Source: Escherichia coli (lineage in GTDB: Bacteria > Pseudomonadota > Gammaproteobacteria > Enterobacterales > Enterobacteriaceae). Taken from it: a stretch of 64,000 nt of DNA. This document shows positions 45,427 through 47,204 of the stretch, piece by piece; positions within the stretch are counted from its first letter, which is position 1, and each line of letters opens with the position of its first letter. A model generated the notes under the pieces. That model made no database searches. It saw nothing but the letters and a program-made list of their open reading frames with translations, and was not told the DNA's origin. The position numbers and the translations under genes are program-made. Location of the stretch: the NCBI RefSeq assembly GCF_041886205.1, contig NZ_CP169029.1; one strand, written 5' to 3'.

Positions 45427-46041
45427 TTATCCTTCGATAAAAGCCATCCCTGTAAATGTCCGTCTCGGGTTGCCACGTTCAATCTGGTGATGGAACATTC
45501 GCCGCTGCGATTTCAGCACCGCGCTATTTTCCTGTTGCTGCTGCTCCAGCTTCCAGGCAATCAGCAATCGTGCCAGCCGCTTGTTAGCATGCTGACTACG
45601 CTCTGACTGAACCTTCACGCTAATACCGGATGCCAAATGCGTGGCGCGTACCGCCGAGTCGGTTTTATTGACATGTTGACCGCCCGGCCCCGACGAACGC
45701 AACGTCTCATAACGGATTGCATCCGATTGTTCCTGCTCATCAGCGGTAAAACGCCCAATGCCCAGAAACCAGTTTTTGCGCCCATGATGAGGCCGATACG
45801 GACTCGGACAAATCCACTGAATAGTGCCGCACCAACTTTCGCTTAATGCCCATGCGTTATCGCCATCCAGAGAAACCAGCGCTGAACGCAGCGTGTCAGA
45901 GTAGCGGCCCGTTTCGGTTTCCAGCACCGTTACCGCGACGTCTTGTCGGGCAGCTTCTTTAATTAGCCTGTCCAGCGCCTTTTTCACTGCGAGACAACAT
46001 TCTTCCGGCCCCTGCGCTGAGGAGAGTTGAAGCAAGATCAT
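45427..46041 (-). CDS. prfH: peptide chain release factor homologue PrfH (apparently intact)
   Basis: Start placed at ATG 46041 ([16 protein letters not shown]...), 204 aa with GGQ motif ([10 protein letters not shown]); ATGA overlap with upstream rtcB-like gene. Confidence 0.85.
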
Positions 46042-47204
46042 CCTTTTTTCCCTCCACTGTTTTTGAGCGTTAGCACCGGACGCAGCCGCGCGACAGGAAT
46101 AATTAAACCGGCCTGCACCAGACATTGCACCACGCTTTCAGCCGATTTATAGGCTTGTGGCGCTTCTTCAAAGATGAGTTGTTTATCGCGACAAATTACC
46201 CGACTGCCAAGTTCAGTACGCGAGAGTTGCGTCGCTGTGTATTTCGCTGCCAGACGCCCTTTACACTCGGTGCGCCCCCATTTACGCCCAGCCCCATGCG
46301 CCAGCGAGTGGAGCGTTTTTTCATTCGCAACAGGCTGTACAAGCCAGGAGTAATCACCGCGTGAACCGGGAATAATCACCAGACCGTTGTCATCCGGCGT
46401 GGCACCTTTACGATGCAACCAGCCCTGTTGATCGCCGATTTGACAGGCGCTAACAAAGTTATGCGCCACATCCAGAACCGGACTTCCGATAGCCTTAACT
46501 TGTTGCATTATGCGTAAAGCGATCAGCTGGCGATTAATACGCGCAAACGCCAGCGCATCGTCATGTTCCGCAATATACCGTAGCGTGTCGTCACTGCCTT
46601 CAGGCAAACCATGATGCGAAAACGAGGCAATATGCCGCTGTAAAATAGACTGCCCCAACCCCCGCGAGCCGCTATGAACCAACAGTTGCAGATGTTGTGC
46701 ATCCAGACCTGCCAGTGCAAACTGTTCAGCGTTGATGATTTGATCAACTTGTTGCAGTTCAGCGAAATGATTGCCGCCACCGATAGAGCCAAGCGAGCTG
46801 CGCCACGGATGCTGTGCAAATGCTGACGGCAGGTTTTCCTCCAGCCAGCTTTCTTCAGCAACGTCATCCAGATCTGATAATCGCTTTTCAAACTTATCGG
46901 CGTTGTATTTGCGAGCGAGAATATCTGTTTGCCATAGCGCCATGCCGCAGCCGATATCATTGCCGACCAGTGCCGGATAAAAACGGCCTGCGGAGAAGAA
47001 CGCTGCGCCAATCGGATAGCCGCGTCCGGGATGTAAATCTGGCATCCCCACTACGCGCTGCATGTTGGGTAAATTTGCCGTGGTGTGTAATTGTAGGATC
47101 GCTAAACTCTCGATCCACAGGTCATCAGATGCGATGGTAAATACCGCATCGGATAAGGGACGAATATAATTGCCCATATACCATTCCGTAAATAGACTCG
47201 TCAT
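46038..47204 (-). CDS. rtcB: RtcB-family RNA ligase homologue (apparently intact)
   Basis: 388-aa [22 protein letters not shown]...; RtcB-like by eye (from memory); translationally coupled to prfH. Confidence 0.8.

Follow-up and report, generated by a model that had tools for sequence, protein, structure and literature searches.

The rtcB2-prfH operon and its locus

We identified, on the minus strand of a 64-kb stretch of E. coli DNA (hereafter the window), two overlapping genes, rtcB2 and prfH, at their usual site between yafP/dinB and pepD, together with an upstream promoter-like sequence and a structured leader (Table 1). The ORF pair, first picked out in a sequence-only reading of this DNA, represents genuine genes and not chance frames: the profile scores lie far above their cut-offs, the overlap between the two genes recurs elsewhere, and no evidence counts against the identity of either. 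The gene order dinB-(yafP)-rtcB2-prfH-pepD is common to Escherichia, Salmonella, Kosakonia, Cronobacter, Entomohabitans, and Intestinirhabdus. The stop/start overlap that had been reported for the pair is indeed seen, as ATGA (the minus-strand junction reads GGATGATC), and the gene coordinates give the same 4-nt overlap in Salmonella, Kosakonia, Cronobacter, Limnobaculum, Leminorella, Entomohabitans, and P. aeruginosa; through it the two genes are translationally coupled, as was already noted in 2006 (PMC1586002). Between the convergent pepD and prfH there is an inverted repeat with one mismatch (CTGCCGGATGGCG-TTTAAT-CGCCTTCCGGCAG), a probable shared terminator of both genes, which a simple terminator scan left unflagged.

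Table 1. Features of the rtcB2-prfH locus (window coordinates).
Feature	Position	Strand	Basis or remark
Inverted repeat, 13-bp arms, between convergent pepD and prfH	45383..45414	.	read from sequence
prfH, peptide chain release factor H, 204 aa	45427..46041	-	TIGR03072; GGQ at residues 120-122
Segment deleted in K-12 and O157:H7-type alleles	45951..46970	.	blastn vs. NC_000913.3, alignment, annotation
rtcB2, PrfH-coupled RtcB-family RNA ligase, 379 aa	46038..47177	-	conserved ATG start, NCBIfam profiles
ATGA stop/start overlap, rtcB2/prfH	46038..46041	-	prfH ATG 46041-46039, rtcB TGA 46040-46038
Whole leader RNA (5' UTR, leader ORF, hairpins, rtcB2 initiation region)	47169..47389	-	covariance model R1
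Nine extra codons of the 388-aa ORF; probably untranslated leader	47178..47204	-	outside NCBIfam profile, not conserved
Weak rtcB2 Shine-Dalgarno region GGAATGGTA, 3' strand of helix P3	47179..47187	-	folding, covariation
Palindrome TTCAAGT...ACTTGAA, part of lineage-specific ~55-nt insert in P3 loop	47207..47233	-	strain comparison
Anti-RBS segment CCATTTCC, 5' strand of helix P3	47261..47268	-	pairs with 47187-47181
Hairpin 1	47268..47317	-	GCAGAC..TCCAGG (47317-47303) pairs with CCTGGA..GTCTGC (47282-47268)
Leader ORF, 15 codons plus stop, MTNPLSMTLCRPFQD (stop)	47298..47345	-	kept in 17/17 genomes
Leader ORF Shine-Dalgarno CTGCAAGGAGG	47352..47362	-	strong SD (AAGGAGG); helix P1 strand
Sigma-70-type promoter, TTGCAA-N17-TAATAT	47387..47415	-	consensus match

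The longest open frame (46038..47204, minus strand) has 388 codons, the length originally given for the RtcB homolog; the RtcB-family gene is real, but its protein is likely to be 379 aa long. We place the true rtcB2 start most likely at the ATG at 47177, because the NF007153 alignment starts at residue 10 of the 388-aa ORF, the RefSeq annotation of the 99.9%-identical strain 6EVA gives 1140 nt and 379 aa, and the first ATG is out of frame or absent in relatives. A 2-bp indel lies between the first ATG and the 47177 ATG in K-12, MS 69-1, and ZY22049, which puts the extra codons out of frame, and the first ATG is missing in strain S65EC (which we take to belong to phylogroup B2, like ATCC 25922), in E. 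coli SCPM-O-B-8794, and in E. whittamii. The 388-aa start was dropped, its upstream nine codons being unconserved and outside NF007153.

RtcB2 scores 639.6 bits against NF007153 (equivalog cut-off 407; profile positions 1-378 of 379) and 616.9 bits against TIGR03073 (cut-off 271.8; here too residue 10 of the 388-aa frame is the first one aligned), and is 97% identical to the S65EC and MS 69-1 proteins. Its motifs (379-aa numbering) are D74/C77, N136/H137, H168, H239, and H294, and the P. horikoshii RtcB residues D95, C98, N202/H203, H234, H329, and H404 each have an identical residue at the aligned position; the catalytic His/Cys metal-binding residues, a check proposed with the original observation, are all present, with no inactivating substitution. 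We take their roles as metal ligands (Asp, Cys, and three His) and guanylylated His from the P. horikoshii structures. PrfH, noted earlier as a 204-aa release-factor homolog with an intact GGQ motif, is just that: it scores 329.3 bits against TIGR03072 (cut-off 166.65; profile 1-200 of 200) and carries GPGGQHVNK at residues 118-126. It is 98% identical (200/204) to chain 8 of the cryo-EM structure PDB 7SA4, and the four differences (K20R, A31T, V55I, and V174A) are all conservative. The stretch 6-190 of PrfH aligns with ~115-303 of RF2, and release-factor domain 1 is missing (204 aa vs. about 360).

The role of RtcB/PrfH pairs in rescuing and repairing ribosomes whose rRNA has been cleaved, which the sequence-only reading had brought up, is experimental for the near-identical proteins of E. 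coli ATCC 25922, for which the damage is cleavage of 16S rRNA (PMC9304027, PMC9223846, PMC13166195); ligation of 16S rRNA after colicin E3 cleavage has been shown for ATCC 25922 RtcB2, and knockout and colicin E3 assays like those suggested for this strain were published in 2022; in ATCC 25922, deletion of rtcB2-prfH entails a loss of protection against colicin E3. By homology, the window allele would rescue and re-ligate ribosomes cut by toxins such as colicin E3. PrfH, a release factor without domain 1, would enter the damaged ribosome at its empty A site and hydrolyze the peptidyl-tRNA with its GGQ motif, so freeing the peptide where the decoding center is damaged; after release, RtcB2 could reach the damage site and rejoin the rRNA ends by the usual RtcB chemistry, with Asp/Cys/His metal ligands and a histidine nucleophile. 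Taken as a whole, the reading of the locus as an intact chromosomal rtcB2-prfH operon, with rescue and repair assigned by homology and leader control deduced from sequence, is one in which we have high confidence.

Deletion in K-12 and frequency of the intact pair

Both genes are truncated in K-12, in agreement with the sequence-only reading: ykfJ (b0235) and prfH (b0236) are annotated as pseudogenes in MG1655, and the alignment contains a single deletion of ~1,020 bp (window ~45951-46970), with no full-length K-12 copies. The deletion, described in 2006 (PMC1586002), takes away roughly 300 codons at the C-terminal end of rtcB2 together with ~30 at the start of prfH, and its junction has imperfect microhomology (CCGGCA/CCGACA). 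The locus and its flanks are otherwise the same as in the window, the DNA being 94-98% identical over the leader, the first ~69 rtcB2 codons, and the last ~174 prfH codons; unlike the window, K-12 has ~70 bp more, inserted upstream of ykfJ.

The full-length region is found in 2709 of 5426 complete E. coli genomes, and only eight records are at least 99% identical to the exact allele. The strain had been put forward as a natural background for RtcB/PrfH function, but it is not a special one, since about half of the complete genomes have the intact pair. The operon, the K-12 deletion, the coupling, and the colicin E3 function are already published (2006, 2022, and 2026), and intact copies are common; the finding of the operon in itself matters little, and the leader is a useful by-product.

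Predicted promoter and conserved leader upstream of rtcB2

The rtcB2-prfH operon appears to have its own conserved, sigma-70-type promoter. In 16 of 18 sequences a regex scan found TTGnnn-N17-TAnnnT, at 24-38 nt 5' of the leader Shine-Dalgarno (SD); the Leminorella sequence fits the pattern by eye (TTGCTA-N17-TACGAT), and Kosakonia has a weak -35 only. A GC-rich repeat just 3' of yafP was considered as a terminator and rejected, as the cross-genus comparison places it in the conserved promoter spacer/-10.

Our covariance model R1 matches the window leader with 146.2 bits (E 3.8e-39), the sole significant match in the 64 kb, and elsewhere gives exactly one strong match per rtcB2 locus. The scan of genome contigs yielded nine loci, and the wider sampling of leaders came from exact-protein look-ups. 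A leader ORF with its ATG, its SD, and a stop codon within a hairpin loop (that of hairpin 1) is found in all 17 genomes read (12 genera): the near-consensus SD (AAGGAGG or AAGGGGG) lies 5-7 nt 5' of an invariant ATG, the ORF changes in length by 3 or 6 nt only, and its variable N-terminal half has no in-frame stop. The ORF and its flanking blocks also occur at non-syntenic loci, in Providencia, Proteus, Limnobaculum, Leminorella, and Pseudomonas. The leader SD CTGCAAGGAGG can pair with CTCTTTGCAG (47323-47314) within the leader ORF, giving helix P1. An Rfam scan of 45300-47900 (E-value mode) returned two sub-threshold chance matches, none of them on the leader strand.

The ~55-nt insert in the P3 loop of the window is missing from S65EC, SCPM-O-B-8794, and E. 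whittamii, and the K-12-type alleles have a further ~70-bp insert in this loop, which we take to resemble the ERIC repeat consensus. Inserts at the same spot are seen in several further genomes, in part of which the intactness of the genes was checked.

Covariation and folding of the leader

Covariation, measured on a plain MAFFT alignment, supports hairpin 1 and the RBS-masking helix P3. Across the leader helices 87.9% of cells are paired, vs. 26-53% with the partners slid; eight pairs change on both sides, vs. 4.0 +/- 1.2 in shuffles (2/500), and the covariation score is 0.190 vs. 0.134 (0/500). The outer stem of hairpin 1 is 96% paired, with compensatory changes from A-U to G-C in four lineages and from C-G to U-A in one. 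Proteus has the stem GCGGACA/TGTCCGC, read directly; its compensatory pairs were read by eye because both MAFFT and the covariance model misalign its 3' arm. Helix P3 is 89% paired, and three of its six pairs changed on both sides. Neither helix P1 (99% of cells paired) nor the pairing between GUCU and the AUGGGC start region varies on both sides, and covariation is therefore neutral on the two; the competing leader helices are compatible with the sequences and invariant. The pairings UUGCCC/GGGCAA of the rtcB2 start and transcript 5' end/AUGGGC were considered and set aside on grounds of conservation or testability.

Opening the rtcB2 initiation region is predicted to cost 7-16 kcal/mol in all 17 sequences folded, and a modeled ribosome at the leader start, as compared with one at the leader stop, lowers this cost in 15 of them. 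At equilibrium the gain is modest, as a rule 1-3 kcal/mol, and in every modeled state the rtcB2 initiation region remains strongly paired; the folding has a consistent direction and is not a clean switch.

A candidate sensor of stalled ribosomes, and alternative readings

The conserved 15-codon leader probably senses stalled ribosomes. When it is fully translated or untranslated, the rtcB2 RBS would stay masked by pairing, which keeps the operon off; if a ribosome stalled on an early leader codon, the segment closing hairpin 1 would be freed, the masking helix would be weakened, and the operon would be turned on. The same logic has been described for PA5471.1, the homologous leader of armZ-PA5470 in P. 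aeruginosa and a documented ribosome-stall sensor (PMC3516279, PMC12057347, PMC13041342) whose control of armZ was shown by mutation of the leader ORF. An indirect report has K-12 ykfJ inducible by the translation-perturbing analog 4-azaleucine (review PMC3516279). Colicin E3-cut ribosomes accumulate at start codons (PMC13166195), and for this reason the operon would be induced by the damage that it repairs. We hold the full proposal (the enteric leader as the PA5471.1 ortholog, stall sensing as ancestral and acting mainly via RBS unmasking, and damage inducing its own repair operon) tentatively, at a little short of an even chance. A 2025 review suggested that stall sensing is peculiar to MexXY regulation (PMC12057347). 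We found no description of the enterobacterial leader, of a uORF, or of a native promoter in the accessible rtcB2/prfH literature; the leader peptide sequence had no literature match, and searches for RtcB2 with a leader returned only unrelated work.

The upstream block might instead be a promoter and structured 5' UTR only, with the 15-codon ORF untranslated or irrelevant and the operon constitutive or otherwise controlled. Because hairpin 1 overlaps the C-terminal half of the peptide, conservation of the peptide and of the RNA are inseparable there and RNA structure could explain it, and a stalled ribosome is predicted to have a small thermodynamic effect. Against such an account stand the near-consensus SD 5-7 nt from an invariant ATG, the variable N-terminal half kept free of in-frame stops, the length changes in multiples of three only, and the stop codon in the hairpin loop in 17 of 17 genomes read; moreover, mutation has shown that the homologous P. 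aeruginosa ORF controls armZ, and ykfJ is reported to respond to 4-azaleucine. We consider it unlikely, although it keeps a real share of the probability.

Two further readings concern the proteins, and both seem to us very improbable. The pair could be full-length and yet silent or inactive here, through a cryptic missense defect or through loss of expression caused by the ~55-nt leader insert: the activity of the window allele is a prediction from homology, the exact allele is rare (the eight records above), and the insert widens the loop of helix P3, by which the rtcB2 start is masked. Against this, the catalytic residues and GGQ are all intact, the four PrfH differences from 7SA4 are conservative, each protein matches its profile from one end to the other, no change is seen in the promoter, leader ORF, or helices, and inserts at the same spot occur in genomes with both genes annotated as intact, e.g., MS 69-1. 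With slightly lower probability still, E. coli RtcB2 could be mainly a regulator, as ArmZ is of MexZ, or a general tRNA/mRNA ligase like RtcB1, and not chiefly a ribosome repair enzyme; ArmZ belongs to the same RtcB family, is also encoded just upstream of prfH, and is a MexZ anti-repressor, and RtcB-family enzymes ligate many RNAs. For the near-identical ATCC 25922 enzyme, however, repair of 16S rRNA has direct evidence in vivo and in vitro, and the conserved coupling to PrfH favors a ribosomal role.

If the enteric leader works as a stall sensor, rtcB2-prfH would be an inducible damage response, usable as a natural reporter of ribosome stalling. K-12 may offer a ready-made test bed, since its locus retains the leader, with the leader ORF at NC_000913.3 253239-253286.

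Comparison with known systems

The closest known system is the RtcB2-PrfH module of ATCC 25922 (PDB 7SA4), which shares with the window the species, locus, and operon layout, a PrfH identical at 200 of 204 positions, the GGQ motif, and all RtcB catalytic residues; for RtcB2 the likeness is drawn via the S65EC allele (97% identical to the window RtcB2). The differences are a few conservative substitutions and the lineage-specific ~55-nt leader insert of the window. RtcB1, from the sigma-54, RtcR-controlled rtcBA operon, has the same enzyme family (PF01139) and ligation chemistry, but RtcB2 forms a separate cluster (PMC9304027), and RtcB1 has no PrfH partner, is regulated differently, and does not relieve E3-stalled ribosomes. 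Similarly, PrfH has the GGQ peptidyl-tRNA hydrolase domain in common with RF1/RF2 and ArfB, whereas it lacks the domain 1 of RF1/RF2 and its target is the damaged decoding center, not stop codons (PMC9304027).

The P. aeruginosa armZ (PA5471)/PA5470 (prfH) operon resembles the window in that its RtcB-family gene overlaps prfH and that a promoter and a 13-15-codon leader precede the operon. The P. aeruginosa locus examined (L025) encodes the leader MIQFSTLCRLRLA followed by a stop, with Q3 and F4 as published; the Q3Am mutant of PA5471.1 is constitutively on. Judged by the blocks in common, the enteric leader is homologous to PA5471.1: both have the SD GCAAAGGAGG, the Leu-Cys-Arg core CCTTTGCAGGC, the GTCTGCC 3' arm, the start region ATGGATTGG...ATGGGCAA, and the core CTTTGCAG. 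The P. aeruginosa leader has ~200 extra nt within the hairpin loop, an insertion because of which R1 matches it weakly (15 bits, E 0.0015), and it lies ~250 bp upstream, while leader stop and rtcB2 start are ~120 nt apart in the window, a distance that falls to ~65 nt in the shortest E. coli alleles. Leader stalling induces the operon in P. aeruginosa, where the proposed mechanism is transcription attenuation; a simple scan found no intrinsic terminator on the minus strand of 47170-47400 and was blank in the P. aeruginosa leader too, and is thus a weak test that does not separate the mechanisms. ArmZ has the added role of MexZ anti-repressor. The leader connects the literature on RtcB2-PrfH ribosome repair in E. 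coli with that on ArmZ/PA5471.1 and antibiotic-inducible efflux in P. aeruginosa, two subjects without cross-citation in the papers covered.

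The rtcB2-prfH gene pair

Direct reading of the minus strand returned the two coupled genes that a sequence-only reading had reported in the window: at the junction GGATGATC, the prfH ATG (46041-46039) overlaps the TGA of the upstream frame (46040-46038) as ATGA, and prfH encodes a release-factor homologue of the length claimed, with its GGQ motif intact (see table). The 388 residues given for the upstream protein hold for the open frame but not for the protein: RtcB2 most likely has 379 aa, starting at ATG 47177, since the alignment to NF007153 (an NCBIfam equivalog) begins at residue 10 of the long ORF, the RefSeq annotation in strain 6EVA (99.9% identical over the region) is 1140 nt long, a 2-bp indel separates the first ATG from ATG 47177 in K-12, MS 69-1, and ZY22049, and the first ATG is missing altogether in S65EC (B2), E. 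coli SCPM-O-B-8794, and E. whittamii.

Features of the rtcB2-prfH locus and its surroundings in the window
Feature	Position	Strand	Remark
AraC/Rob-like regulator	34545-35189		betA-tRNA gap
IS1 transposase fragment	35434-35937		betA-tRNA gap
SMEK-domain protein	36225-37205		betA-tRNA gap
prfH	45427-46041	(-)	204 aa, GGQ at residues 120-122
Open frame upstream of prfH	46038-47204	(-)	388 codons without interruption
CCATTTCC	47268-47261	(-)	pairs with GGAATGG(TA) 47187-47179, immediately upstream of rtcB2 ATG
Leader hairpin 1	47317-47303 with 47282-47268	(-)	GCAGAC..TCCAGG with CCTGGA..GTCTGC
Leader ORF	47345-47298	(-)	15 codons, MTNPLSMTLCRPFQD, then stop
Strong Shine-Dalgarno (SD) of leader ORF	47362-47352	(-)	within CTGCAAGGAGG
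Promoter-like TTGCAA-N17-TAATAT	47415-47387	(-)	sequence match
yafP	47423-47875		dinB stop/yafP start overlap 47872-47875
dinB	47872-48927		overlaps yafP directly
lafU and N-terminally truncated flhA-like (lfhA) gene	48998-49888 and 49695-51467

RtcB2 scored 639.6 bits on NF007153 (cut-off 407), end to end, and 616.9 bits on TIGR03073 “release_rtcB” (cut-off 271.8); PrfH scored 329.3 bits on TIGR03072 “release_prfH” (cut-off 166.65), also end to end. PrfH differs from its counterpart in PDB 7SA4 at only four positions (K20R, A31T, V55I, and V174A; 200 of 204 identical), and since its residues 6-190 match RF2 residues ~115-303 in the alignment, it lacks domain 1, as expected. RtcB2 shares 97% identity with its S65EC and MS 69-1 counterparts. 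Aligned with P. horikoshii and T. thermophilus RtcB, it keeps every active-site residue, in the motifs NDIGCG (D74, C77), GGGNHF (N136, H137), VHSGSRG (H168), DVAHN (H239), and AHGAGR (H294), so the check proposed for its catalytic residues revealed no inactivating substitution; the residue roles, with H294 as the nucleophile, are those we take to apply from the P. horikoshii structures.

The intact pair is thus real and was rightly interpreted, and it is also already known and common in the species. Baranov et al. (2006; PMC1586002) described the operon with its stop/start overlap, and reported a deletion of ~1,000 nt in K-12 and O157:H7 and intact copies in CFT073, UTI89, and 042. The proposed link to rescue and repair of ribosomes with cleaved rRNA agrees with published work: on ribosomes damaged by colicin E3, PrfH frees the peptide, after which RtcB2 seals the cut 16S rRNA, deletions in ATCC 25922 sensitise the strain to colicin E3, and K-12 derivatives are naturally defective in the module (Tian et al., 2022, PMC9304027; Maviza et al., 2022, PMC9223846). 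A 2026 study added in vitro kinetics, the gathering of E3-cut ribosomes at start codons, and the finding that the RtcB of the rtcBA operon is no substitute for RtcB2 (PMC13166195).

Allele distribution in E. coli and neighboring genes

Both genes are truncated in K-12, as the sequence-only reading had stated: in MG1655, ykfJ (b0235) and prfH (b0236) are annotated pseudogenes between yafP and pepD, and blastn and alignment place a single deletion of ~1,020 bp, equivalent to ~45951-46970 in the window, whose junction shows imperfect microhomology. Upstream of ykfJ, K-12 has gained an extra ~70-bp insertion, which we take to resemble the ERIC repeat consensus. A 2,041-bp query matched 5420 of the 5426 complete E. 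coli genomes; coverage of the query was 80% or more in 2709 of them, so about half of the species has the pair intact, and most other genomes cover 50% or 42% of the query and represent deletion alleles. Only 8 of 5435 matching records from complete E. coli genomes reach at least 99% identity to the window allele (45380-47420), the best being strain 6EVA (human faeces, Singapore; 99.9%), and most intact alleles show 95.5-98.4%, so the lineage behind the window is sparsely sampled.

In K-12 and MS 69-1, the yafN-yafO toxin-antitoxin pair separates dinB from yafP; the window lacks this pair, and the direct dinB/yafP overlap is also found in 6EVA, S65EC, and ZY22049. Only ~3.6 kb (33817-37458) separate the end of betA (33816) from tRNA-Thr(CGU) (37459-37534). 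K-12 carries the CP4-6 prophage at this tRNA, so the island appears to be largely missing from the window. The lafU/lfhA genes are the scar of a lateral-flagella (Flag-2) cluster deletion, the same in K-12 and 6EVA.

A structured leader precedes the enteric operon

The yafP stop (47423) and rtcB2 are 245 nt apart, and this interval holds a leader with a short ORF and hairpins. The 5′ arm of hairpin 1 lies within the final codons of the leader ORF, with the stop codon in the loop. The leader block is identical across five divergent E. coli strains; the adjoining sequence varies.

Among rtcB2 loci sampled by a genome scan and exact-protein look-ups, the same arrangement was found in 17 of the 17 genomes read, covering 12 genera and one Enterobacteriaceae MAG. 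Where flanks were read, the locus is syntenic with E. coli in Escherichia spp., Salmonella, Intestinirhabdus, Kosakonia, Cronobacter, and Entomohabitans, and directly follows dinB in Citrobacter sp. FP75; Klebsiella (two species) and the MAG UBA3516 were counted on the leader itself. The leader is also present at non-syntenic loci in Limnobaculum, Leminorella, Providencia, Proteus, and Pseudomonas sp. YH-1. Leader peptides have 13-15 residues (for example, MTLYSLNALCRHFQH, MQQIQLNILCRRIQD, MTTINMNTLCGQSQK, and MQALITLCRSRLA), with a variable N-terminal half and an invariant core, Leu/Phe/Ile-Cys-(Arg/Gly); length changes are of 3 or 6 nt only, and the stop codon always falls within the hairpin loop. 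In 16 of 18 sequences, a regular expression for TTGnnn-N17-TAnnnT gave a match that lies 24-38 nt before the SD; of the exceptions, Leminorella matches by eye and Kosakonia has a weak -35.

RNAalifold returned three helices: P1 (the SD region with CUUUGCAG), the inner hairpin stem, and P3, which masks the rtcB2 ribosome-binding site. Over hairpin 1, P3, and part of P1 (plain MAFFT alignment, 14 sequences), 87.9% of cells are in standard pairs, vs. 26-53% with the partners slid; eight pairs changed on both sides, vs. 4.0 ± 1.2 in shuffles (2 of 500 reach 8), and the covariation score was 0.190, vs. 0.134 ± 0.010 (0 of 500 reach it). In the outer stem of hairpin 1, G-C replaces A-U in four lineages and U-A replaces C-G in one, and Proteus (GCGGACA/TGTCCGC) has one more compensated pair there, missed by the aligners. 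P3 has three double-change pairs, for example GGAATGG with CCAT.TCC to GGATTGG with CCA.ATCC. As P1 and a candidate pairing between GUCU and the AUGGGC start show no variation (95-99% paired), covariation speaks neither for nor against them. R1, a covariance model built from the leader alignment, gave exactly one strong match per locus, always adjoining rtcB2 (47169-47389 in the window, 146 bits), with no other significant match across the 64 kb; no matching family was found in Rfam 15.

The P3 loop is an insertion hot spot (47188-47260 in the window; 6366-6429 in locus L001). In the window, in Escherichia sp. E1V33, and in K. spallanzanii it contains ~55-60 nt of inserted palindromic sequence (TTCAAGT..ACTTGAA or similar), to which a second insert of ~70 bp, apparently ERIC-like, is added in K-12-type alleles; the loop is short in S65EC, E. 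coli SCPM-O-B-8794, and E. whittamii. In Intestinirhabdus alba (L016, 1175-1509 and 2637-3312), prfH is split into pieces of 144 and 61 residues and the leader hairpin loop has a ~190-nt insertion; this operon copy is apparently decaying.

Proposed mechanism of the leader

We infer the function of the enteric leader from folding models and analogy. Without a ribosome, or after one has translated the leader through to its stop, hairpin 1 would have its 5′ arm engaged by the SD region (P1) or covered, and the 3′ arm and CCATTTCC would then be available to clamp the rtcB2 start. A ribosome stalled at the leader start would sit on the SD region, releasing the 5′ arm to close hairpin 1, and this closure would take away part of the clamp. 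Opening the rtcB2 initiation region costs 7-16 kcal/mol in every species folded; in an equilibrium estimate with the ribosome modelled as a footprint of unpaired bases, a ribosome at the leader start rather than at its stop lowers this cost in 15 of 17 sequences, usually by only 1-3 kcal/mol. The modelled direction agrees with P. aeruginosa genetics, in which early stalling switches the operon on and full translation switches it off, and is consistent with the accumulation of E3-damaged ribosomes at start codons (PMC13166195). A simple scan detected no terminator in the E. coli or P. aeruginosa leader; control of rtcB2 may be transcriptional, translational, or both.

Comparison with the PA5471.1 leader of P. 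aeruginosa

In P. aeruginosa, the RtcB-family gene armZ (PA5471) forms an operon with PA5470 (prfH) and is preceded by the 13-codon leader PA5471.1, on which ribosome stalling (antibiotics, suhB or cca mutations) induces the operon (PMC3516279, PMC12057347, PMC13041342); an early amber codon, Q3Am, also activates it (PMC13041342). The proposed mechanism is transcription attenuation, for which a 2025 review asks confirmation (PMC12057347). At the one P. aeruginosa locus compared (L025), the leader reads MIQFSTLCRLRLA, then stop, and its Q3 and F4 agree with the published peptide. Its SD GCAAAGGAGG, core CCTTTGCAGGC, 3′ arm GGTCTGCC, and start region ATGGATTGGATTATGGGCAA recur in the enteric leaders; it differs by ~200 extra nt inside the hairpin, because of which R1 matches it weakly. 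Judged by these elements, the enteric rtcB2 leader is homologous to PA5471.1.

The ArmZ/PA5471.1 papers and the E. coli RtcB2-PrfH papers deal with homologous operons, with scarce cross-references (PMC12057347 vs. PMC9304027): control by a leader peptide is described as “unique to MexXY” in the 2025 review of that system (PMC12057347), and the E. coli ribosome-repair papers mention neither ArmZ nor any leader (Morita et al., 2009, lies outside this comparison). K-12 ykfJ is reported to be inducible by 4-azaleucine (PMC3516279). The novelty of an enteric leader of this type is uncertain; the one point worth passing on is that a conserved PA5471.1-type leader stands before the enteric operon.
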